Below are positions 3,947 through 16,273 of a DNA stretch of 45,401 nt, piece by piece. The stretch lies in IMG/VR virus record IMGVR_UViG_3300045988_114473; one strand, given 5' to 3'. The stretch is from a virus. Under the pieces are notes generated by a model. The model saw only the letters and a program-made list of their open reading frames with translations. It was not told where the DNA came from and searched no databases. The position numbers were made by a program, and so were the translations under genes. Position 1 is the stretch's first letter, and the number at the start of each line of letters is the position of its first letter.

Positions 3947-4203
3947 TGCGTAGCGAACTAGCTCACCTAGAAAGTCGGAAACGACTTGCTGCGCCGGGGT
4001 TCGGCGGACGTGAGCTGTGTTCGTGCTCAGGGTGTAAGCCCCGTAACGACATGGCGGAGCGAGATAAAACCTGAGCACCGCGCGACTCTTTTGGGATTTT
4101 GGAGGCTACAAAATACCCGACCCGGTAGCTGTGACCCATGACGACAGCGGTCTCACCGATATATGAGATGGAAATAGTCGGTTTTTCTCCTTTGCCGATG
4201 ACA

Positions 4204-4235
4204 AGCCCGCTTGCGAAAAGCAATGCGGGTTTTTC
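4204..4235 (+). terminator. Putative intrinsic terminator just upstream of the lysis cassette
   Basis: cccgcttgc-gaaaa-gcaatgcggg forms a 9-bp stem with one bulge, followed by ttttt. A perfect TATAAT lies at 4247-4252. Confidence 0.45.
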
Positions 4236-4281
4236 CTTATGTGGCGTATAATCCGTCCTAGGAAAACAACGGGGGTTTAAA

Positions 4282-4638
4282 ATGCCCGAAAAATACAGAG
4301 AAATCCTTACGGGCTCCTCCGCTTGGCTTGCGCTGTTCACCGCCGCAGGAGGTTGCCTAGTGAACTACATCACGGAATACAGAAACTCAGGGCGTCTACA
4401 GTTACGGTGGCTCACGGCTGATCTGCTCACAAGCTGCTTCCTAGGATACCTAGCCTTTTGGCTCATGATTGATTACGGGTTTACCCTATCCGAATGCGCA
4501 ATCGGTACGTGCGTCATCGGCAACCTCGGAGCGCGCGTGTTCGACATAGTGCGATTCAACCTTAGCAAACGCGGCGTTATGCCGCCTGTACAAAAGAAAA
4601 GCGAACTCTACGTAGGCGACAAAGACAAATGCAAGTAG
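4282..4638 (+). CDS. Holin (three predicted transmembrane segments)
   Basis: 118 aa with hydrophobic stretches SSAWLALFTAAGGCLVNYI, LLTSCFLGYLAFWLMI and CAIGTCVIGNLGARVF, and a charged C-terminus. It overlaps the endolysin start. Confidence 0.7.
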   Translation: MPEKYREILTGSSAWLALFTAAGGCLVNYITEYRNSGRLQLRWLTADLLTSCFLGYLAFWLMIDYGFTLSECAIGTCVIGNLGARVFDIVRFNLSKRGVMPPVQKKSELYVGDKDKCK

Positions 4639-5003
4639 GCTACTTCAACACGGATGAGTTTAAATCGGCGGACGGGAAAGAGTCCCCGTGGGGCGAGACT
4701 GTGGTCGATCCCGTGCTTCTGGAAAAGCTCAACGAGATTCGAGAGGCATACGGAAAGCCCGTCGTCATCAACTCAGGATACCGTTCGCCGGAACACAATG
4801 CCGCCGTGGGCGGCGTGAAGAACTCGATGCACGTACAGGGCAAGGCGGCCGACATCCGTCCTACGTCGAAGAATGCCGCAGACCTGCCCGAGCTTCAGCG
4901 CATTTGCGATGAGCTCAACGCAGAAGGCGGCGTGGGGTTCTACAACACGTTCTGCCACGTTGACGTGCGCGGTCGTCGCGCCCGTTGGGACAACCGCAAA
5001 TGA
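4629..5003 (+). CDS. Endolysin, peptidase M15 (LAS-type zinc D-Ala-D-Ala/L-Ala-D-Glu peptidase)
   Basis: Motifs SGYRSPEHNAAVGG, SMHVQGKAADI and FCHVDVRG match the H..D...H LAS metallopeptidase signature. Confidence 0.85.
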   Translation: MQVGYFNTDEFKSADGKESPWGETVVDPVLLEKLNEIREAYGKPVVINSGYRSPEHNAAVGGVKNSMHVQGKAADIRPTSKNAADLPELQRICDELNAEGGVGFYNTFCHVDVRGRRARWDNRK

Positions 5004-5434
5004 ATGCTAATGTTTTGACCGTTCTTTTGCTCGCCACCGTCGGTGCGATCGGCTACTTGGCCGGCGAGCACTCTGCGGCGGAGGACTACCGCGCGCTTAT
5101 CGAAGAGGCAACGAAGCAACGCGAGGCCGAACGGGATAGTTTGTTAAAGGAGAATCAAGATGCTTGGGCTAAAGAAGCCGAACACCGTAAAGCGCTGGAC
5201 GCTGCCAACGCTAATGTGCGCTCTCTTACTGAGCGGCTGCGCAACGCCACCCGCGCCAATCGACTGCCCGAAACCACCTCCGCTGCCCTCACACATCTCG
5301 AAGCCCGAAATGCCGAGCTTCAACGCCTACTCAACCGATGTTCAGGTCTTCTTGACCGAAGCGTTGGAGAGTATGGCCGATGCGCCGTCGGACACGACAC
5401 AGCAGTGAACCTGTATCAAGCCGCGCGCAAGTAG
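5000..5434 (+). CDS. i-spanin (Rz-like)
   Basis: The start overlaps the endolysin stop (ATGA). It has an N-terminal transmembrane segment (NVLTVLLLATVGAIGYLAG) followed by a charged coiled-coil periplasmic domain. Confidence 0.8.
   Translation: MNANVLTVLLLATVGAIGYLAGEHSAAEDYRALIEEATKQREAERDSLLKENQDAWAKEAEHRKALDAANANVRSLTERLRNATRANRLPETTSAALTHLEARNAELQRLLNRCSGLLDRSVGEYGRCAVGHDTAVNLYQAARK
5160..5408 (+). CDS. o-spanin (Rz1-like lipoprotein) embedded out of frame within the i-spanin gene
   Basis: It has its own AAGGAG Shine-Dalgarno. A signal peptide ends in the lipobox LLSGC, and the mature part is proline-rich (ATPPAPIDCPKPPPLP). Confidence 0.8.
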   Translation: MLGLKKPNTVKRWTLPTLMCALLLSGCATPPAPIDCPKPPPLPSHISKPEMPSFNAYSTDVQVFLTEALESMADAPSDTTQQ

Positions 5435-5437
5435 CAA

Positions 5438-5468
5438 AAAGCCCCTCAATCGAGGGGCTTTGTGTTTT
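5438..5468. terminator. Bidirectional terminator between convergent lysis and nucleotide-metabolism operons
   Basis: aaagcccctc-aatc-gaggggcttt is flanked by an A-run upstream and gtgtttt downstream. Confidence 0.75.
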
Positions 5469-6273
5469 AGTGACCCAGCCTTGATCTCAACGAACGCCAG
5501 CCGTCAAAGTTAGCGTACGTCAACGGGCGAGACGTTGCGGTATGCTCCATTGGCGACCAGTGCCCATCCATGCTAAGTCGCTCGAACAGCGCAAGGTCTT
5601 CTTCAATCGTGGACTGCGTCCCGTCGTGCTTGAGGTACGACAACCGTGCGCATCGTGCGGCGGATACTAGGGGGAGTTGATCCCACGGGAGGCTATCCCG
5701 CTCCTCCACAAGCACGTACGGGTAGTGATCCTCCCGACGAACGGGGACAGACAACCGTATTGACTGATGGATGCACTGCGCCAGCGTTTGGATCACGGGA
5801 TCAGCGTCCTTCGCCAAGCGCTGGGTGAAGAACCGCTCCCACCGCGTGGCCGTAATGAGGTGTCGCACGAAGCTAAACGGCTCAAGCAGTCGATTGACGT
5901 GCTGCTTGTGTACGCCCATTTCCGACAATCGTCTTGCGCTTGCGACGGCGGCCTCTCGCGCGCAGAGCCAGTTGTCCCGTGCCTTTGCCGACTCTTCCGG
6001 CGAGAGCTCGTCCCCGCCCACCATGCCGCGCTGATTGCGGTAGAAGTGCGACGGGACGTAGGTGCAGTCCTCGATGATGCGATCCACGGGTGTGGCACGG
6101 GACGAAGACACCGAGTTGGAGAAGTCCTTGTGCCGCAGCACCTCTGCGTGGATGATGCGCGGATACACGCACTCGACCGAAATAATGCGACGTCCGTTAA
6201 ACGTAGAGTCCTCGATGATGGTTGCCGAGCACTGCTCGAACTCAACCGTTGTGTCGTTAGTTGTCTTGTACAT
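5467..6273 (-). CDS. thyX: FAD-dependent thymidylate synthase ThyX
   Basis: It has the ThyX signature LRHKDFSNSVSSSRA (RHR..S.N..S.R type) and a C-terminal HWSPMEH. Confidence 0.85.
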   Translation of the reverse strand: MYKTTNDTTVEFEQCSATIIEDSTFNGRRIISVECVYPRIIHAEVLRHKDFSNSVSSSRATPVDRIIEDCTYVPSHFYRNQRGMVGGDELSPEESAKARDNWLCAREAAVASARRLSEMGVHKQHVNRLLEPFSFVRHLITATRWERFFTQRLAKDADPVIQTLAQCIHQSIRLSVPVRREDHYPYVLVEERDSLPWDQLPLVSAARCARLSYLKHDGTQSTIEEDLALFERLSMDGHWSPMEHTATSRPLTYANFDGWRSLRSRLGH

Positions 6274-8809: not shown

Positions 8810-9043
8810 CTACTCCCACGCCTCGTTCTTTTTTCGCCAAACCTCTTTCACCATCCAGTCAAGGTCTTTGGCAAACGATTCCGCCTCATTAGTCCCCATG
8901 CGTATCTCTACCTCTCCGTCCTCGTTCACCTCTCCGGACAGGAAAAACATCCGGTCGTTTTCGATAATAGCTCCCGCATCCGCGTCTTGTACACGCACTT
9001 TAACGAACAGCCTCGGCGTTGCATTTTTGTCGCTAAGTTTCAT
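8810..9043 (-). CDS. Hypothetical protein
   Basis: 77-aa ORF whose start overlaps the helicase stop. Confidence 0.55.
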   Translation of the reverse strand: MKLSDKNATPRLFVKVRVQDADAGAIIENDRMFFLSGEVNEDGEVEIRMGTNEAESFAKDLDWMVKEVWRKKNEAWE

Positions 9044-10434
9044 TTATTTTCTCCTTTCATAGCATCGAGCAAAAGCTCTTGAATGCTCTTCTTTGTATCA
9101 ACCCTTGCCATAACCATCTCATCGACGGTTCCTCGGGCTACTATGTTGTAGATAAACACAGGTCTGTCATGTCCTGCTTGATGCTGTCGGGTCGGACCGA
9201 TACGCTCCGTGATCTGCATCTTGGCTTCCAAGTCCCACCAATGGCTGAAGAAAACAAGGATGTTTCCTCCGTCCTGCAGGTTGAGCCCGTGTCCCGCTGA
9301 CTGCGGGTGCGCTAACAACAACGGGATTCTACCCTGATTCCACTCTTGAATAGTATTGGGGTTTTTATCTAAGAGCCTTGCCTGCGGGAAAGCCCTAAGC
9401 AGCCGCTCCGCATCCGGCTTCCAATGGTAGGCCACGAGGATAGGAGCTCCGGCGGCCTCTTCCACGATCGACTTAAGCGCTTCGATCTTGGCGTCGTGCA
9501 GCTCGTGCCACTCCCCGTCCGCATCGTAGATCGCGCCCGATGCGGCCTGCAGGCACTTCATGGTCTTGGTCGCCGCGTTGAACGCCTCGATCTCAACACC
9601 CTCAAGCTCCGTAAACATTTCACGCTGCAACTCGTTGTAGACCCTCTTCGCCTTCGGCGGCAAGTCCACGTAGACGTTTGTCACGATAGGGTCTTTCAAC
9701 GGGAAATAGTCCTCTGCCTTTACGGTCAAGCACAAGTCCGCCATCTTTTTCTGGATCTCATCCTGAGACCATTCGCACGGAACCCACTTGACGGCGAACG
9801 CATCCGACCCAACCTTGATCGGACGGAACCACCGGTTTTGAAAGCGGCTGAACGACTTGGTAAGACGCTCGCCCTTGTCGAGAAACCATGCCTGACCCCA
9901 CAGGTCCATCAACCCGTTTGGTGCGGGCGTGCCCGTAAGCTCCACAAAGCGCTCGGCGTGGAAAGCAACTGCCGCAAGTGCCTGAGCGCGTACGCCTCCG
10001 CTCCGTGTGCGATAGGACTTGAGCCTCGTTGACTCGTCCGCCACGATGATCTTGAATGGCCATTTGCCCGTTGTGTCCTTGAGCTCATGCAGCAGCCACA
10101 CGATGTTCTCATAGTTCATCGTGTAGATGTCCGCAGGAGTGTGCAGGGCTGCACGACGCTGTTCAGCCGAACCGATGATAGGTGAAACCCTAAGATGCGA
10201 TAGCTCCGCCCACTTCTTCACTTCATCCGGCCACGTGCTCTGCGCCACGCGCAAAGGGGCCAAGACAAGCGCAGGCGTAATATCGAACACGGCGTTCAGA
10301 TACGAGAGGGCAAAGAGCGTAGAGCTTGTCTTGCCCATACCCATGCCGGCCCAGACTGCACATCGCGGCGTCTCTATTATGTGGCGGATGATGTCCCGTT
10401 GATAGGGGCGGGGAGAAAAACTACGGGGAGGCAT
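9040..10434 (-). CDS. SNF2/DEAD-like superfamily II helicase
   Basis: Walker A GMGKTSST, DEST box, TGTPAPNGLMDLW, and helicase-C motif QSAGHGLNLQ. Confidence 0.9.
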   Translation of the reverse strand: MPPRSFSPRPYQRDIIRHIIETPRCAVWAGMGMGKTSSTLFALSYLNAVFDITPALVLAPLRVAQSTWPDEVKKWAELSHLRVSPIIGSAEQRRAALHTPADIYTMNYENIVWLLHELKDTTGKWPFKIIVADESTRLKSYRTRSGGVRAQALAAVAFHAERFVELTGTPAPNGLMDLWGQAWFLDKGERLTKSFSRFQNRWFRPIKVGSDAFAVKWVPCEWSQDEIQKKMADLCLTVKAEDYFPLKDPIVTNVYVDLPPKAKRVYNELQREMFTELEGVEIEAFNAATKTMKCLQAASGAIYDADGEWHELHDAKIEALKSIVEEAAGAPILVAYHWKPDAERLLRAFPQARLLDKNPNTIQEWNQGRIPLLLAHPQSAGHGLNLQDGGNILVFFSHWWDLEAKMQITERIGPTRQHQAGHDRPVFIYNIVARGTVDEMVMARVDTKKSIQELLLDAMKGENK

Positions 10435-11258: not shown

Positions 11259-11715
11259 CTAATTCCATCCTAAGCAAAAAGTTTTCCAACTTGGATGCTT
11301 CGATGCCGTCGTGAATCTCTTTAAGCGAGCACTGCTTCACGATGGCAAGCACATACGGCATCCCCTCGTCGATGAACGGTATGTAGCGCTTGTCGTATGG
11401 CTCACCGTGGTGTAGGGCGACAAAGACTTCGGTCACCGCGCCCTCCGTCTTTTCGAGGATGTCCATGAGCGCGTCTGCATCGTTCATCTTCGGCACGAGT
11501 TGACGCGCCGTGCGCACAATAACACCGAGCGTACTCACGGTGTCAATGTCAACGGTTCCGTTGCGCATTCGCTCGATGCCGTAATGCGCCCACAGTCCAA
11601 AGTCCGTGTTCATGGCCGACACCTTCTCGGGGTTATCCACGTGCCACCAAGTGAACTCGCGCTTGTACCGACGAGGGTTGTAGTTCTTACGCGGCTTCTT
11701 ACTTTTTGCCATCAT
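11245..11715 (-). CDS. Hypothetical protein
   Basis: The ATG at 11715 shares one nt with the polymerase TGA (TGATG). It has a basic N-terminus (KSKKPRKNYNPRRYK). Confidence 0.6.
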   Translation of the reverse strand: MMAKSKKPRKNYNPRRYKREFTWWHVDNPEKVSAMNTDFGLWAHYGIERMRNGTVDIDTVSTLGVIVRTARQLVPKMNDADALMDILEKTEGAVTEVFVALHHGEPYDKRYIPFIDEGMPYVLAIVKQCSLKEIHDGIEASKLENFLLRMELDGQT

Positions 11716-14700
11716 CAATCCTTTCTGTATCGCATTGCGGTAAACCCTGCGGCCGCTAGGGGTAAACCCTCAGCCCACGGGATGTCGGTCGTCATCAATC
11801 GCGCCAAGTCCTTGTCGTCAAGGCCGAGATAATCGGGCACTTCGCAAACGATTTCATCGTGGATGTGCATAACGGGGCGCATACCTGCGTCTTCCGCATG
11901 ACGAAGCCCCGCCATCAGAATGTCACGAGCCGTCGCCTGCACGATGTTTTCGCAGTTGTGAACGATCAGCGGACCTTCCGTACCTAGCACTACGAATCGG
12001 TGCCGCGGTCCGCAGTTGAACAGGTCGTAAACCGGTTTCTCGCATCCGGCTTGTCGAACAGTCGTTCCCTCGGGCAGTTGTGCGCCAGTCGATACAGCAA
12101 CGTCGTTTTGCCAATCCCTGTTTTCTCCTCCCAGTACGTGAGCGGTTTCCCGTCGACGAACACCGTTTTCCTTTTGTTGTTGCAGTTCTCCTTTCGCGTG
12201 GCCCACCGACAGTTCTCCTTCGAGTACCCCGCGTTGTTGTCTATCCGATCTATGTCCAGACCGGACTCGTACGTAGGGCCCATGTCCCTCCAAAACGCCT
12301 CGAACGACGCGCTCCACTCGGGACACACCGTTATCCCCCGTCCGCCGTAGTTCTTCCACGCCTTGTGCGTCGGGCATTCGCACCTCTGTTTCATACTGTG
12401 CCAAACGGCCCACGCCGGATGTTTCGACATCCCGTGCGTTTTCACTCTCGACGATATGGTCTCCGCCTTCTTGCATCCGCACGAGGCCACAACCCCGCGC
12501 TTCTTCATCTTTACTAGCTCCGAGGCCGCTATTGTCTTCGCCACCCCGCAAACGCATTGGACCAGCCACAGCGAATTCTTCCCGTCCGAGCCTGCGTACC
12601 GAATAGCCGTCAGGTATCCGACACGGAAGCCTGTCATATCTTTCGCTCGATGATGCATCTTTCCAACCTTCAGTAGTAAGAACCAAATGGTCCGGCGTCA
12701 TGTACACGCCGTGCGCCTTGATTACGGGTTTAACACCCTGCATCACCGCGCCGCCCTGCGACACCCATTCTTCGCCGTCCCACACTTCGTCTTCGGATGT
12801 CACCCCCTCAATGGGAATCCATCCTCTACGGCATAGTACAGGAGTTTGTTCAGAAATACAAAGTTTACCTCCGTAGGTCTTGACGCGCTGCCACTTGCGC
12901 GTGTATTGGTCGATGCCAGCGTAGGTGAACGCACAGCGCTCATCACCGACAGGAGGACGGCAGGATGGGTAGCACAGCCCTCGACCGGAGGGAAGTCGAA
13001 CGGCAACCCAACCCTTAGCGGGACGGCACACCTTGAGCTTGGCGCCAAGCAGAACGGAGTCCCCCTCCTTCAGCGACCGCAGCATTGCCTCCTCGGTCGA
13101 AGACCAGAACTTGCGGATCGCAGGGTGCGCAGCACGCCAAGCGTTCTTGATCGCATCGCACGCGATCCACGTATTCTTCTTGAGCCCGTGCGTGAGCTTT
13201 TTCGAGAGCGCCCAATCGTATGCGTCCGAAGACTTCACCCAAAACGCATGATCGATGGCCTCGTAAACGTGCGCCGCAAGCTCATCGAGGTTGACGCCGT
13301 AGGCGGGGGCAAAGGTCAAGAACGCACCGACGCCGCCCTGATACCCTAGTCCGAGTTCAAGCACCTTACCGATCTGTCGCTGGTGCTTCGTCACGTCCTC
13401 GGCGCGAATGCCAAACGTACGGGCATAGGTCGCCTTGTACAAGTCAGGACCCTCGCCGCGATCAAAAGCCTTGAACGCCTCGATCTTCCACTTCTCGCCC
13501 GCAAGCCAAGCGAGCACGCGCCCCTCGATGTTTGACAGGTCGGCCACCACGAGCTTGTGCCCCTCAGACGCAACCACACACCCGCGGATGCAGTTCGACA
13601 AAGCGCGATTCGGATCGTCGTACAGCACGGGGACTAGATCGGACTTGATGGCGTCAATCGCCTCCTCCACCTGCGCAGGCTTCATAGTACCGCGCGGAAG
13701 GTTCTGGAATTGCACGAGACGTCCTGAATTACCTGTGACCCACACGCTCCCGTTACGGCGCACAAAGAAAAAGCCAGTCGGCGTCATCGCGCAATACACG
13801 GTTCCGTGGAAAGGCACCCGCTTGTGGCTTTCTACGCGTATATCATGCACGCCCCGCGAGTTCGTCCAAACATTTACGCAGTAGATAAGACTCCAACCTG
13901 CCTTTTTAGGCGTGCGCTCAAGCACCCGTGCTGCGCGGCCTGTTAAATGCGCCAACGCCTGCACGGTATCAGCGTTCTCTTTCACCTTAGACGAATATTG
14001 AAATGAGTTCTGCGTCGCCTCGTACGAGTCCCACCGCTTCAGCTCATCAAAGAACACGTCCGCATTCCACCGCAAAACAGCGCGCAGGTGAAACACCTTG
14101 TCAAAAGACGCGAGCCAATTCGGAACGTGCGCCCTGGCAATCGTTATCAGCGTTGTATCACCGTACACAGACTCGGTGTACAAAATGCCCGCCGCATCAA
14201 GCAAAAGCCGACACCGCTCTATTTTTCGCGTCTTTTTGAAGTGATACGTTAAGGCTCCGCCCTTGGCATAGTGCCCGTCGGCTTGCGTCATAACAAGCAC
14301 GCGCACTTTCGCATCAGCAACCGTACGTTCAGCGTTCTGGATACGCACTGCGCTTATTGGCACTGTTGAACGACGGCTCGACACCGTTGCCATCGATTCA
14401 CGAACCACGGCGCCGCCGCGCACAACAGGCATCGCGTGCTCTTCGGTCGCGGCTTGATCTATCCTCTTGTCCTGCGTTACCACAAGCGCGTCGCCGCACG
14501 GAAAAGAAACAGCGTGACTGTGCGACAGCGTGGCCGCCCTGCTCACTGGGTCGAAGACGAATATTTTTCCTCCGCCCCATTCGTCCAAGCGCACCCAGCC
14601 TTCTTCCGTAAGGACCTCATGGTCGCCCGTGAGGCAGAACCGCCCCGTACGCGAAGCGCCCATGAACTGCGTCGATCCGCGAATGCGCCCGTCCTTCCCC

Positions 14701-15602
14701 GCCGCTCTTCCCAGCGCCTTGTACTTCGCAACGGAAGCCACAGCCGACGACAAGCGAAGCGCAATGAGTTCACGCACGGGTTCGGGCAGATTTTCATCGT
14801 TGAGTCTCTTCTCAAGCGTGGCTTTCTGGAGGTTCGGCAGCGACACACCGTACATGAACAAAATGTGCTTAAGCAGTTCATCCCGCTGCATGGCCGTCTC
14901 GACAAAGCCCCCCGTGGCTTCCTGCATTTCCTTGTCGCCCTTGGCCTTCACGTAGTCGGCACACTTAAGCGCTCCAGCAACGAGCGCCATGTCGATCTTG
15001 ATGCCTCGGTCGTTTATGATCTGATCGCAGTGCCAATCCGCCCACATCTGAGGCGTGGAGTTCCACGCATAGATGCGCTTGGTCATCTCTCGCATGGCCT
15101 CTACGTCAAGGCGGCAGTAGTTGACGAAACGGGACCAATCCTCGGGCGCATTTTCCCGTGTCCATCGCTTGCCCGTTGCCGTAGGCTTGCAGAACTTAAG
15201 CACCAGACGATGGCCGTCCTTGTCTTTTGCCTTGTCCTGCGGAAGGCCGAGCACTTCGGACAGGAGGCCGAGCGCACCGGGCAGCCCCACCGAGTAGGCA
15301 AGGATCATCGTGTCCTTCCACCGTTTCGGATCGCCGAAAGGCGCACCGAGTTTGTGCTTAAGAACGTTGCGGTCGAACATCGAGTTGTGCGCGATGAAAA
15401 CCGTTTCCGGATTGTTCACGGCCTCGCGCAAATCCTCGGGCATTTCGTCTCCCGTTGTCAGGTCCCACACCTTTGCGGGCTCATTGCCCACGGCGTAGCC
15501 AAACAACGTGATCTCGGTGCTCGGGTCTTCGGCATAGCGGTACCCGCCGCACTTTTTTATGTCGCACTTAGACCACGTTTCGAGATCAACCCAAAGAAGC
15601 AT
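11715..15602 (-). CDS. Family A DNA polymerase with 3'-5' exonuclease domain, interrupted by two inteins (690-aa extein after removing 303-aa and 302-aa inteins)
   Basis: Exo motifs are VDLETWS, FIAHNSMFDRNVL and YCRLDVEAM. Pol motif A is VVADLSNIEGRVLA, motif B is RQIGKVLELGLGYQGG and motif C is MHIHDEIVCEV. The conserved RTGRF|SGR..QFQNLP and YGGKL|CENIVQATARD motifs are each split by an insert. Confidence 0.9.
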   Translation of the reverse strand: MLLWVDLETWSKCDIKKCGGYRYAEDPSTEITLFGYAVGNEPAKVWDLTTGDEMPEDLREAVNNPETVFIAHNSMFDRNVLKHKLGAPFGDPKRWKDTMILAYSVGLPGALGLLSEVLGLPQDKAKDKDGHRLVLKFCKPTATGKRWTRENAPEDWSRFVNYCRLDVEAMREMTKRIYAWNSTPQMWADWHCDQIINDRGIKIDMALVAGALKCADYVKAKGDKEMQEATGGFVETAMQRDELLKHILFMYGVSLPNLQKATLEKRLNDENLPEPVRELIALRLSSAVASVAKYKALGRAAGKDGRIRGSTQFMGASRTGRFCLTGDHEVLTEEGWVRLDEWGGGKIFVFDPVSRAATLSHSHAVSFPCGDALVVTQDKRIDQAATEEHAMPVVRGGAVVRESMATVSSRRSTVPISAVRIQNAERTVADAKVRVLVMTQADGHYAKGGALTYHFKKTRKIERCRLLLDAAGILYTESVYGDTTLITIARAHVPNWLASFDKVFHLRAVLRWNADVFFDELKRWDSYEATQNSFQYSSKVKENADTVQALAHLTGRAARVLERTPKKAGWSLIYCVNVWTNSRGVHDIRVESHKRVPFHGTVYCAMTPTGFFFVRRNGSVWVTGNSGRLVQFQNLPRGTMKPAQVEEAIDAIKSDLVPVLYDDPNRALSNCIRGCVVASEGHKLVVADLSNIEGRVLAWLAGEKWKIEAFKAFDRGEGPDLYKATYARTFGIRAEDVTKHQRQIGKVLELGLGYQGGVGAFLTFAPAYGVNLDELAAHVYEAIDHAFWVKSSDAYDWALSKKLTHGLKKNTWIACDAIKNAWRAAHPAIRKFWSSTEEAMLRSLKEGDSVLLGAKLKVCRPAKGWVAVRLPSGRGLCYPSCRPPVGDERCAFTYAGIDQYTRKWQRVKTYGGKLCISEQTPVLCRRGWIPIEGVTSEDEVWDGEEWVSQGGAVMQGVKPVIKAHGVYMTPDHLVLTTEGWKDASSSERYDRLPCRIPDGYSVRRLGREEFAVAGPMRLRGGEDNSGLGASKDEEARGCGLVRMQEGGDHIVESENARDVETSGVGRLAQYETEVRMPDAQGVEELRRTGDNGVSRVERVVRGVLEGHGPYVRVRSGHRSDRQQRGVLEGELSVGHAKGELQQQKENGVRRRETAHVLGGENRDWQNDVAVSTGAQLPEGTTVRQAGCEKPVYDLFNCGPRHRFVVLGTEGPLIVHNCENIVQATARDILMAGLRHAEDAGMRPVMHIHDEIVCEVPDYLGLDDKDLARLMTTDIPWAEGLPLAAAGFTAMRYRKD
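11955..12860 (-). mobile_element. Intein 2 of the DNA polymerase (aa 915-1216), Hint domain halves flanking an out-of-frame HNH ORF
   Basis: It starts CISEQTPVL (block A), has MTPDHLVLTTEGW (block B) and ends PVYDLFN...GPLIVHN followed by Cys+1. The middle roughly 200 codons are G/R/E-rich low complexity in this frame. Confidence 0.8.
11990..12658 (-). CDS. HNH-type homing endonuclease-like protein encoded inside intein 2 in a different reading frame
   Basis: 222-codon ORF offset by one nt from the polymerase frame. Motifs are CVCG...SCGC, YGGRGITVCPEW and IDRIDNNAGYSKENCRWATRKENCNNKR. The first His of H-N-H appears replaced (DRID). A GAAGG element lies 8 nt upstream of the ATG. Confidence 0.75.
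   Translation of the reverse strand: MHHRAKDMTGFRVGYLTAIRYAGSDGKNSLWLVQCVCGVAKTIAASELVKMKKRGVVASCGCKKAETISSRVKTHGMSKHPAWAVWHSMKQRCECPTHKAWKNYGGRGITVCPEWSASFEAFWRDMGPTYESGLDIDRIDNNAGYSKENCRWATRKENCNNKRKTVFVDGKPLTYWEEKTGIGKTTLLYRLAHNCPRERLFDKPDARNRFTTCSTADRGTDS
13728..14636 (-). mobile_element. Intein 1 of the DNA polymerase (aa 323-625) with an in-frame LAGLIDADG-like region
   Basis: It starts CLTGDHEVLTEEGW (block A), has ATEEHAM (block B TxxH) and ends TVYCAMTPTGFFFVRRNGSVWVTGN followed by Ser+1. Candidate dodecapeptide motifs are VLVMTQADGHY and FFDELKRWDSY. Confidence 0.8.
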
Positions 15603-15618
15603 GGCGTTTTCTCCTTTT

Positions 15619-15652
15619 AAAAAAGGGGCTCCGGCTTTTACACCGAAGCCCC
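15619..15652 (-). terminator. Intrinsic terminator/attenuator between the SSB and polymerase genes
   Basis: On the minus strand, GGGGCTTCGG-tgtaaaa-CCGGAGCCCC forms a 10-bp stem with one G-U pair, followed by TTTTTT and the polymerase Shine-Dalgarno. Confidence 0.6.
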
Positions 15653-15673
15653 ACGGCTCACTCAGTCAGCTTT

Positions 15674-16273
15674 TTATTCCCAAGGAGAAGCGCCTTCGCC
15701 CTCTTCACCGAAGCCGGTAGCGGCTTCGAGTTCAGGGAAGTCTTCCGCCTTGGCAACACCGCCGCCGCTCAGACGGTCGCCGTCCTTGACGAACTGCAGT
15801 CCCTTAAGACCGATGCCGACGCCGTCGCCACCCGTCTTGTGGCTGTACTTGTAGAACGACACGATGGCGTGAACGGTAGCGCCCGCGTACATCATTTCGC
15901 GGATTTCCTGTTCATTCATCTTGGTACGGTCGCGCTTGTAGCACGGGATCACAATGCCGGAGTTGGCGTTGATGAAGAGACGGCCTGCGTAGCCTGCGAG
16001 CTCTTCCTTGAGATCGCCATCCTTCAGCGGGAATTTGCCCTTGGCCTTCATGCCTGCGACAACCTTGTCGCCCTTGGCGCCGAAGGCTTCCTTGGCGACA
16101 GCCACGATGCTGGCTTCGATTGCCTTGGCCTCCTGCGAGTCCTTGTCCATGAGCAGAGCGCAGCCGTACTTGGGCTTGGCGCCTTCAAGAGACGTGTTGG
16201 GCTCAAGGATGTGAGGGAAGCTCAGCGTCACGTTTTCGAGAAGAATGGAACCGTCTGAAAGTTTCTTAGCCAT
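15674..16273 (-). CDS. Single-stranded DNA-binding protein, DUF2815-like
   Basis: 199 aa with an acidic C-terminal tail ending in an aromatic residue (EEGEGASPWE). It occupies the usual position between the DUF2800 nuclease and PolA in this replication-module type. The assignment is partly by context. Confidence 0.65.
   Translation of the reverse strand: MAKKLSDGSILLENVTLSFPHILEPNTSLEGAKPKYGCALLMDKDSQEAKAIEASIVAVAKEAFGAKGDKVVAGMKAKGKFPLKDGDLKEELAGYAGRLFINANSGIVIPCYKRDRTKMNEQEIREMMYAGATVHAIVSFYKYSHKTGGDGVGIGLKGLQFVKDGDRLSGGGVAKAEDFPELEAATGFGEEGEGASPWE

Follow-up and report, generated by a model that had tools for sequence, protein, structure and literature searches.

An HNH-like, homing-endonuclease-type gene nested out of frame within an intein of a phage DNA polymerase

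How can a DNA polymerase gene be occupied by a second gene read in another frame and still be translated through to its catalytic C-terminus? The question arises in a viral DNA of 45,401 nucleotides (IMG/VR record IMGVR_UViG_3300045988_114473; "the window" below means this whole stretch), in which an earlier note, made from the sequence alone, had described an HNH homing-endonuclease ORF lying out of frame inside an intein of a family-A polymerase (PolA). Our follow-up analysis suggests that the locus is probably a composite selfish element, namely a class-1 intein in which the endonuclease slot between blocks B and F is filled by an HNH-like gene of the free-standing type in the +1 frame. The features on which the argument depends are as follows.

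11715..15602, minus strand: family-A DNA polymerase (PolA) ORF, the intein host gene; 1295 aa in a single open frame
13728..14636, minus strand: intein 1, 303 aa, canonical, with an in-frame central domain; RTGRF/CLTGDHEV...VWVTGN/SGRL
11955..12860, minus strand: intein 2, class 1, 302 aa; Cys1...TPDH (block B)...VYDLFNCGPRHRF (block F)...IVHN, then Cys+1
12597..12860, minus strand: N-terminal splicing half, intein 2 residues 1–88, blocks A and B; pLDDT 86–95, beta-rich
12051..12596, minus strand: polymerase-frame linker, intein 2 residues 89–270; stop-free, G/R/E-rich, non-conserved
11955..12050, minus strand: C-terminal splicing half, intein 2 residues 271–302, blocks F and G; pLDDT 87–91
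11952..11954, minus strand: Cys+1 codon of the C-extein, the splicing nucleophile, as read from the sequence
11990..12658, minus strand: HNH-like ORF of homing-endonuclease type, 222 aa; +1 frame with respect to the polymerase, ATG start
12667..12671, minus strand: Shine-Dalgarno-like GAAGG of putative function, 8 nt upstream of the HNH ATG (12656..12658)

The host ORF matches Pfam DNA_pol_A at 3e-15 as well as NCBIfam PolA models, its C-extein aligns with Taq Pol I residues 753–807, and it carries two inteins. Intein 1 is missing from a relative with 94–96% identity (L084), where the junction reads RTGRF-A-GRL; its residues 96–304 match PHROG 12229 and 32482, annotated as ribonucleotide reductase and PhoH-like, and these matches presumably correspond to intein inserts within those proteins. 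Intein 2 follows an N-side extein ending ...KTYGGKL and comprises exactly 302 codons, opening with CISEQTPVL and closing with ...GPLIVHN, after which the C-extein resumes with CENIVQATARD; the interruption after TYGGKL and its coordinates, as originally described, all held on recomputation. The window also contains long unannotated alternative-frame ORFs, for example one of 394 aa at 14436..15620 on the plus strand, without a family match.

Since neither Hint nor HNH models gave a match when Pfam and NCBIfam were run on single sequences, we turned to a family profile and structure prediction. The profile of the intein family matches the PDB inteins Mtu RecA and Neq Pol with E values of 8e-5 to 2e-4. 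An AlphaFold2 model of intein 2, built on only 8 sequences, has a pLDDT of ~90 for residues 1–88 and 271–302 and of ~25 for residues 89–270, and the top 40 Foldseek matches of this model are all inteins or Hint domains (best probability 1.00), so that all three approaches place Hint similarity at the proposed junctions. The signature residues of a class-1 intein are all present, namely Cys1 (CISEQ), TPDH and IVHN followed by Cys+1; these residues are conserved in 24 homologues, as are both splicing halves (residues 1–88 and 271–302), with RN or SN in place of the terminal HN in two relatives. Removal of intein 2 restores GGKL-C-ENIVQATARD, and the virtual spliced junction forms one contiguous alignment in >1500 phage polymerase genes. 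In the intein-less allele of APSE-3, the Cys+1 position is occupied by Ile, TYGGKIIENICQS; this allele reads TYGGKIIENICQSTARD across the empty site, and the corresponding stretch of its P45 is ...GGCAAAATTATTGAAAATATATGTCAG... Intein 2 is thus a class-1 intein with two conserved Hint half-domains that are predicted to fold. Because an essential polymerase motif is interrupted in viable isolate phages, we infer that it is removed by autocatalytic protein splicing. A group I intron carrying a homing endonuclease gene (HEG) was also considered and rejected: an Rfam search of 11600..15700 returned no intron at E ≤ 1 (one unrelated weak sRNA match), and the host frame is open and encodes Hint.

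The clean 222-codon ORF, one nucleotide downstream of the polymerase frame, was recovered at the coordinates first reported. Its ATG overlaps the K-D codons directly 3' of block B (MTPDHLVLTTEGW), in agreement with a start right after that block, while its stop, initially placed inside block F, falls 13 codons before Cys+1 and hence between blocks F and G. The predicted product is modular, with an N-terminal beta-sheet bearing CxC..CxC clusters, a helical insert (YGGRGI), a beta-beta-alpha motif (LDIDRIDNN..NCRWAT..N) and a C-terminal helix-turn-helix (HTH), and it is modelled by AlphaFold2 with a mean pLDDT of 88. It matches PHROG 374 and 3377, both "HNH endonuclease", at 2e-61 and 3e-49, and at E 1e-19 it matches phage homing endonucleases (HNH, HTH and AP2) in BFVD. 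The best match of the family profile to a solved structure is the HNH motif of I-HmuI (E 0.01); Pfam and NCBIfam searches with the ORF gave no HNH match, and a Foldseek search of its model against PDB returned nothing significant for the whole chain, with the rare-cutting HNH enzyme PacI at E ~0.9. Within the beta-beta-alpha motif (predicted strands 135–138 and 150–153, helix 155–160), the Asp and both Asn residues (N149/N161) are conserved in the family. The residue aligned with the catalytic His of I-HmuI, however, is an invariant Arg (D-R-I-D) in 43/43 family members checked, which sets the protein apart from canonical HNH enzymes with their catalytic His plus Asn/His metal ligands. The HNH hallmarks that the earlier note had recognised are therefore incomplete, the first His of the motif being replaced, and because of that substitution nuclease activity is only putative.

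As for the translation of this ORF, the GAAGG ahead of its ATG is built from the E-G codons of intein TTEGW. In 24/24 nested homologues the ORF opens with ATG (GTG in four of them) and has a purine-rich motif ahead of it that is formed by block-B codons; this suggests that the HNH-like protein is translated separately.

A nested +1 arrangement of this kind recurs in at least 34 independent loci of phages or prophages, with both frames open; this supports the original proposal of a free-standing-type endonuclease gene nested out of frame in an intein, and the refuting conditions set out in the earlier note were each decided in favour of that proposal. These loci include APSE-1 (annotated P45/P46), the Caulobacter phages GB2A, RW, RLK and KcrB, and Shewanella SFCi1, and the layout is also found in IMG/VR contigs and bacterial genomes; the phage hosts belong to Proteobacteria, Clostridia, Chloroflexota and others. 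Insertion sites comprise three registers of the GGKLxENxxQAxARD motif, another polymerase site and an SNF2 helicase; in the window the helicase site, at 9553–9555, is empty. A nucleotide search against phages gave no near relative of the window, and the HNH-like family occurs free-standing in >1200 phage records. A comparison of related inteins with and without the insert, as had been suggested, could be made within this family: three relatives (P0124, P0125, P0127) are mini-inteins without the HNH-like ORF, and a further locus (L088) is fractured into three ORFs in three frames. The GenBank record of APSE-1 already annotates the nested ORF. The APSE P45/P46 literature covered here mentions the intein and its variable presence and makes no mention of the nested ORF; an earlier description is possible, for example in the original APSE-1 paper (PMID 10489345).

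Both intein-plus and intein-minus alleles are present in APSE, in line with published variable presence (PMC7313666). Between APSE-1 and APSE-3 the flanks are 98–100% identical, with identity falling to 84–92% close to the site, over ~150 nt on its upstream side and 25 nt on its downstream side, and this clustering of divergence at the insertion site fits homing. Between the window and L084, the divergence of the intein is about equal to that of its flanks; the intein of this lineage is vertically inherited, with no sign of recent homing. As co-divergence between the HNH-like and splicing domains is weak (r 0.18, Mantel p ~0.08), we do not claim that they are inherited as one unit at this depth.

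What the polymerase frame encodes across the nested gene is a linker of ~180 residues (89–270), predicted to be disordered between two well-predicted Hint half-domains, with 41% G+R+E and 23% hydrophobic residues; this stretch would be translated as part of the intein and leave with it on excision. This frame is stop-free because codons ending in T are avoided where they would precede AAN, AGN or GAN (0/63, compared with 27/171 elsewhere). Codon-position-specific divergence among homologues amounts to 0.41, 0.37 and 0.61 at HNH codon positions 1, 2 and 3, with most change at the third, and the HNH frame retains 50% pairwise amino-acid identity, the polymerase frame 26%. The closer comparison with L084 shows the same asymmetry: 13/22 differences inside the ORF are silent when read in the HNH frame and 6/22 when read in the polymerase frame, whereas outside it 6/7 are silent in the polymerase frame; in the N-terminal splicing-only stretch the figure for that frame is 4/5, and substitutions are again synonymous in it from block F on. 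These patterns indicate purifying selection at the amino-acid level on the HNH-like ORF, with the overlapping polymerase frame kept free of stops and otherwise not constrained. The earlier note had supposed that both frames are maintained, and this stands with regard to their openness, while amino-acid selection is seen in the HNH frame only.

Before the arrangement is accepted as genuine, three other accounts of the open frame have to be weighed. Canonical in-frame HNH inteins exist according to the cited literature, and two compensating sequencing or assembly indels could fake an overlap in which the HNH domain truly lay in frame with the intein. Yet the +1 offset with an open host frame recurs in at least 34 independent sequences, including the finished isolate genomes of APSE-1, the four Caulobacter phages and SFCi1; in most loci the HNH frame has a stop 0–13 codons upstream of the start, and the 3' end of the ORF lies at different distances from Cys+1 (-4 to -29 codons). 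A search of ~160 loci gave no in-frame Hint-HNH fusion; the long HNH-frame ORFs there could be traced to read-through from upstream in GC-rich genomes, to tandem duplication or to fusion with AP2, and the artefact reading is effectively refuted. An open frame arising by chance, without any selection, could be argued from the frequency of long spurious ORFs in a genome of 56% GC, and the window does hold long unannotated ORFs in alternative frames, such as that at 14436..15620. When synonymous codons of the HNH ORF were shuffled so as to keep its protein and codon pool, however, the polymerase frame acquired 7.5 stops on average and was open in 0/5000 shuffles, against the 0 stops observed; the same test in 24 homologous loci gave 3.6–14 expected stops, with 0 observed in 24/24 and P(open) at most 0.015 in each. 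The third frame contains 12 stops across the ORF, and the polymerase-equivalent frame contains 1–70 (median 15) in 121 free-standing relatives versus none in the 34 nested loci. Moreover, translation of the C-terminal catalytic motif of the polymerase requires that ribosomes first traverse this stretch. Chance, judged unlikely earlier from a rough expectation of stop frequency, is refuted by these tests. Programmed ribosomal frameshifting (+1 in, -1 out), by which some ribosomes would make a Hint-HNH-Hint protein and the nested ORF would have no translation of its own, would suit an ORF that sits on the same strand exactly where an intein endonuclease domain usually does. We consider it very unlikely: it requires two precise frameshifts, the ORF keeps its own ATG or GTG and purine-rich motif in all 24 homologues, the distance between its end and block F varies, strict stop avoidance over ~220 polymerase-frame codons would be needless if productive ribosomes left that frame, and close free-standing relatives exist as ordinary ORFs of their own.

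A different kind of doubt concerns function. The nested gene may be real and conserved but no longer, or never, a homing nuclease, acting instead as a DNA-binding or regulatory protein, or as a targeting partner of another nuclease, within an intein that is now inherited vertically. The Arg in place of the catalytic His throughout the family, the lack of a Pfam HNH match, the varied naming of BFVD relatives as DNA-binding, AP2 or HTH proteins and the vertical inheritance seen in the window and L084 all lend this reading some weight. It has to contend, though, with a family that is HEG-like and free-standing in so many phage records and that is nested at several conserved sites in two host genes, with the presence/absence polymorphism and clustered divergence in APSE, with the conserved Asp and both Asn of the beta-beta-alpha motif, and with strong purifying selection in an element able to lose the gene, as the mini-inteins show; on balance we judge it unlikely.

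On the preferred explanation of a composite selfish element, ribosomes in the polymerase frame would produce a precursor carrying the linker, which protein splicing would remove together with the intein to leave a functional polymerase, while other ribosomes would start at the internal Shine-Dalgarno-like motif and ATG to give the endonuclease as a separate protein. This enzyme would cut or nick intein-less alleles near the insertion site, and recombinational repair would copy the intein and its gene into the cut allele (homing). The element probably originated when a free-standing HEG invaded a mini-intein, the survivors being insertions that left the host frame open; subsequent loss of the HEG would yield mini-inteins, and loss of the open frame split ("fractured") genes. 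A broader reading, which we advance tentatively and with rather less than even confidence, is that this is a widespread and still-mobile family preserving all stages of endonuclease gain and loss (mini-intein, +1-frame HEG, fractured gene), in which the Arg-variant HNH-like protein works as a site-specific nuclease or nickase on intein-less PolA and SNF2 alleles, repeated re-insertion explaining the three registers and the jump to the helicase. If so, the long-standing model of "splicing first, endonuclease acquired later" would become directly testable in cultivable phages.

These sequences matter in several respects. Many independent examples support the view that inteins gain their endonucleases when free-standing homing endonuclease genes invade them, and within one family the intermediate and both decay products coexist. 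The overlap itself is unusual, in that one frame encodes a folded protein while the other need only be readable, its product being discarded by protein splicing; it thereby offers a natural measure of the cost of keeping a frame open through codon choice alone. Cultivable members (Caulobacter GB2A/RW/RLK/KcrB and Shewanella SFCi1) give experimental access to splicing across a disordered linker of ~180 residues and to homing by a nuclease that would be translated separately. There is a practical consequence as well: gene callers choose the short HNH ORF at the expense of the polymerase, which is dropped or truncated, so that essential replication genes of such phages are systematically mis-annotated. 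Database proteins found with the polymerase-frame query numbered 9, versus >3100 with the HNH-frame query.

Among solved structures the closest counterpart of the nested protein is I-HmuI (PDB 1U3E), a nicking homing endonuclease of the HNH type from Bacillus phage SPO1. I-HmuI has a beta-sheet at its N-terminus, followed by a beta-beta-alpha motif and, at the C-terminus, an HTH; the domain order of the HNH-like ORF is similar. The two differ in setting, a group I intron for I-HmuI and an intein for the window ORF, and the HNH-like protein has Arg for the catalytic His, the additional helical insert (YGGRGI) and Cys clusters.

The earlier note supposed that the endonuclease of a known intein always lies in frame with it; this view has since been overtaken, as antisense (1998) and out-of-frame (2025) homing endonucleases (HENs) have already been published. 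Out-of-frame and antisense HENs in actinophage inteins (Gosselin et al. 2025, bioRxiv 10.1101/2025.01.02.630785) come closest to the present case: there, too, the splicing blocks enclose a HEN ORF of the same strand, read in a different frame, and the host frame is open, the in-frame centre has no recognisable fold (here, a linker pLDDT of ~25 versus a mean of 88 for the +1 product), and a free-standing HEG invading an intein is the proposed origin. The window element differs in its I-HmuI-like, HNH-type HEN, which is EndoVII-like in the actinophages, in its use of the +1 frame as opposed to "frame 3", in its host genes, a family-A polymerase and an SNF2 helicase, and in its hosts (Proteobacteria, Clostridia, Chloroflexota and others versus Actinobacteria). 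A LAGLIDADG HEN encoded antisense within the DnaX intein of Synechocystis (Gorbalenya 1998, as described in a citing paper) is likewise a separate ORF overlapping the central region and not an in-frame domain, but according to that account it lies on the opposite strand, belongs to another nuclease family and resides in a cellular host, not a phage; a cyanobacterial dnaX intein is also named in the title of a 2026 bioRxiv preprint.

Two further systems are related by layout. In fractured genes, split inteins have a free-standing HEG between their N and C halves (Dassa et al. 2009, PMC2677866), an organisation shared by L088, and the accompanying model predicts exactly such an intermediate as that found here. 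Those HEGs are GIY-YIG or Vsr-like, whereas that of the window is HNH-like, and the host frame of the window is continuous and not divided into two ORFs, for which reason its intein would splice in cis. The out-of-frame HNH insertion in the DNA methylase of phage ShiLan (Arsenault et al. 2025, PMC11855218) similarly hides an HNH ORF in an alternative frame while the insert leaves the host frame stop-free; splicing domains could not be detected in that insert, which is suggested to persist as a loop, whereas the insert in the window is flanked by a complete Hint domain. The window element thus adds one more case to those out-of-frame and antisense HENs already published in inteins, a rare but recently described class.

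Re-reading the window's ORFs and sequence bore out the coordinates that the earlier note had claimed for an insert in the DNA polymerase gene and for a second ORF nested within it. The features are listed below (slashes mark junctions or insertion sites).

11715..15602, minus strand: polymerase ORF, a single ORF of 1295 codons matching family-A DNA polymerases
11955..12860, minus strand: intein 2, 302 codons, after ...KTYGGKL; starts CISEQTPVL and ends GPLIVHN, then Cys
11990..12658, minus strand: HNH ORF, 222 codons from an ATG, in the frame one nt downstream of the polymerase's on the same strand
12667..12671, minus strand: GAAGG, 8 nt 5' of the HNH ORF ATG
13728..14636, minus strand: intein 1, 303 aa, RTGRF/CLTGDHEV...VWVTGN/SGRL; unrelated to intein 2, with an in-frame central domain
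9553..9555, minus strand: empty helicase site in the SNF2 helicase ORF 9040..10434; the window's own copy, ...TKTMK/CLQAASGAIY, is unoccupied

The HNH ORF starts after intein block B, as claimed, its ATG overlapping the K-D codons directly 3' of that block (MTPDHLVLTTEGW); its stop, previously placed inside block F, sits between blocks F and G, 13 codons ahead of Cys+1. On the opposite strand, over the polymerase N-terminus, a 394-codon ORF (14436..15620, plus strand) matched nothing in PHROG and is probably one of the spurious long ORFs common at such GC.

Both the proposed junctions and their Hint similarity were supported. The virtual spliced junction forms one contiguous alignment in more than 1500 phage polymerase genes, and the intein-less APSE-3 allele reads TYGGKIIENICQSTARD at the site. 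Cys1, TPDH, block F and HN/C are kept in all homologues. A Pfam scan with the single sequence returned no Hint domain; the PDB matches of an eight-sequence intein profile were inteins only (Mtu RecA, 8e-5; Neq Pol, 2e-4). In the AlphaFold2 model, residues 1-88 and 271-302 are beta-rich with pLDDT of about 90, while residues 89-270, the linker between these two Hint half-domains, have pLDDT of about 25 and a composition of 41% G+R+E with few hydrophobic residues. The best 40 Foldseek matches of the model were all inteins or Hint domains (top probability 1.00, E about 2e-3, the score being limited by the split alignment). No intron RNA family matched the polymerase/intein region.

The argument that the polymerase frame is unlikely to be open by chance withstood permutation. 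With the +1-frame protein held fixed and its own synonymous codons permuted 5000 times, the polymerase frame acquired a mean of 7.5 stops and was open in 0/5000. A stop arises there when an HNH codon ending in T precedes AAN, AGN or GAN; no T ending occurs among the 63 HNH codons so placed, compared with 27 among the 171 others. The third frame across the HNH ORF contains 12 stops, and the 56% GC content was rejected as the cause of the double openness. Resampling of 24 nested loci gave 3.6-14 expected stops, with P(open) ≤ 0.015 at every locus. An assembly artefact was also rejected, since the +1-frame HNH match within an open polymerase CDS recurs in APSE-1, GB2A and SFCi1. The nearest phage relatives of the +1 ORF (48-53% identity), namely APSE-1 to APSE-7, four Caulobacter phages and Shewanella phage SFCi1, all lie within annotated polymerase genes, and the APSE-1 record already annotates the nested ORF, as P46 within P45.

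Scans of IMG/VR and GTDB genomes yielded 161 loci encoding relatives of the +1 ORF. Nested loci (34/161) have no host-frame stops and lie within ORFs of 250-1280 codons ending ...HN/C, with a few others showing variant C-termini; free-standing loci (121/161) carry 1-70 stops in the equivalent frame (median 15). No in-frame Hint-HNH fusion was seen among the HNH-relative loci examined, and the nested loci showed neither the compensating indels nor the host-frame stops for which relatives were checked. The penultimate intein His is replaced in two nested members, which end ...IVRN/C (L096) and ...IVSN/C (L099).

The proposal that both frames are maintained held for openness; amino-acid selection was seen only in the HNH frame, and the linker is unconstrained. 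Pairwise comparison of 24 nested homologues gave nucleotide divergences of 0.41, 0.37 and 0.61 at HNH codon positions 1, 2 and 3. HNH position 2 is polymerase position 3, where a constrained polymerase frame would have concentrated most variation, but the least was observed. The same codons gave an amino-acid identity of 50% when read in the HNH frame, against 26% in that of the polymerase. On a finer scale, compared with L084, a metagenomic relative 94-96% identical, 6/7 differences in the intein parts outside the HNH ORF are synonymous in the polymerase frame, while inside it 13/22 are silent in the HNH frame and just 6/22 in the polymerase frame; from block F on, it is again the polymerase frame in which the differences are synonymous. 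The aligned polymerase-frame middle looks conserved (e.g. ELRR.GD) because it is the shadow of HNH motifs such as NYGGRGI.

The HNH-endonuclease hallmarks read from the sequence were recovered in part. The ORF matches PHROG 'HNH endonuclease' families (2e-61 and 3e-49) and many phage proteins that BFVD lists as HNH, HTH or AP2 homing endonucleases (E down to 7e-19), and the best solved structure for a 52-sequence profile is I-HmuI (1U3E, E 0.01), aligned at the HNH motif. Its AlphaFold2 model is confident (mean pLDDT 88), running from an N-terminal three-stranded sheet with CxC..CxC through a helical insert and a hairpin plus helix to a C-terminal HTH. Where I-HmuI has the His that we regard as its catalytic general base, 43/43 family members, nested and free-standing, have Arg at the aligned position (L-D-R-I-D-N); the ORF had no Pfam HNH match, and Foldseek of the whole chain against the PDB gave nothing significant. 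For these reasons we label it an HNH-like gene of homing-endonuclease type, with nuclease activity suggested by family behaviour. A start codon (mostly ATG, GTG at four loci) is present in 24/24 nested ORFs, 4-20 codons ahead of a conserved D-x-T-G. Each is preceded by a purine-rich stretch drawn from block-B codons, either GAAGG/AAGGG out of E/K-G-W or GAGGT out of D-H-E-V, and these stretches and starts may act as translation signals.

Mini-inteins without the HNH gene occupy the same sites in P0124, P0125 and P0127, and some mini-inteins keep a polymerase-frame remnant of the HNH ORF's 5' end. P0125 also contains the C-terminal end of another family intein at the polymerase GYGGG motif. A related locus, L088, is fractured at 4001..5817 into three ORFs that overlap, each in a different frame:

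4001-4765: ORF 1, polymerase N-part and N intein half (IntN)
4599-5336: ORF 2, HNH
5140-5817: ORF 3, C intein half and polymerase C-part

It resembles a naturally split intein that carries a homing endonuclease gene (HEG) of HNH type; in the diverged protein P0129, the N-terminal ORF (polymerase N-part and IntN) terminates as in L088. Within the polymerase motif GGKLxENxxQA, intein and HNH gene occur in three registers (GGKL/C-EN, GGKLxEN/C-xQA and GGKITENL/C-QA), all within five codons in a 26-locus alignment, and the +1 Cys is either intein-imported or host-native. The composite is also located at the GYGGG polymerase site, where L095 has a nested-HNH intein, and in SNF2 helicase at ...K/C... 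(L022, L024, L031, L038, L105 and P0123, the last with Pfam Helicase_C); the window's own helicase holds this site empty, at 9553..9555.

The flanks and exteins of APSE-1 and APSE-3 are 98-100% identical except close to the site, where a stretch reaching about 150 nt upstream and 25 nt downstream has 84-92% identity, a dip of the kind that co-conversion in homing, or divergence of the target site, would be expected to leave. Both intein-plus and intein-minus APSE alleles appear in the phage records here and in a published account (PMC7313666). HNH and splicing-domain co-divergence is weak, and intein 2 was inherited vertically in the window and L084. Intein 1 is absent from L084, which reads RTGRF-A-GRL; this indicates recent gain or loss.

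The element is an intein with an intact Hint domain and a stop-free, unconstrained host-frame linker, predicted to be disordered, overlapped by a selected +1 ORF of HEG type. The polymerase precursor would be translated through and the entire 302-residue insert spliced out, while a minority of ribosomes would use the internal start to make the endonuclease; this would cut intein-less alleles, and repair would copy the element in. Such an element could have originated when a free-standing HEG invaded a mini-intein, with only stop-free insertions surviving.

In phages of this kind, annotation of the polymerase is systematically wrong. A polymerase-frame intein query matched 9 database proteins and an HNH-frame query more than 3100. 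Metagenome gene calls at L084 3035..6481 and L085 2983..4944 list the HNH ORF and miss the enclosing polymerase.

The earlier note's statement that known inteins carry their endonuclease in frame does not stand, as separate-ORF homing endonucleases (HENs) in inteins are already published: an antisense LAGLIDADG HEN in the Ssp DnaX intein (Gorbalenya 1998, as cited in a later paper), and, in the inteins of actinophages, LAGLIDADG and VSR-like HENs encoded antisense as well as EndoVII-like HENs in 'frame 3' of the same strand (bioRxiv 10.1101/2025.01.02.630785). Split inteins with an HEG between the halves (PMC2677866) and an out-of-frame HNH without an intein (PMC11855218) have also been described, and a 2026 preprint bears a title on dnaX. 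No published description of a +1-frame HNH-like family in PolA/SNF2 inteins was found in the accessible literature; the family is nonetheless present in the APSE-1 annotation, and its interest comes mainly from its breadth, evolutionary series and experimental tractability. It has a +1-frame HNH-like gene in PolA and SNF2 inteins, and the hosts or source genomes of its phages and prophages include Proteobacteria, Clostridia, Chloroflexota and Verrucomicrobia.
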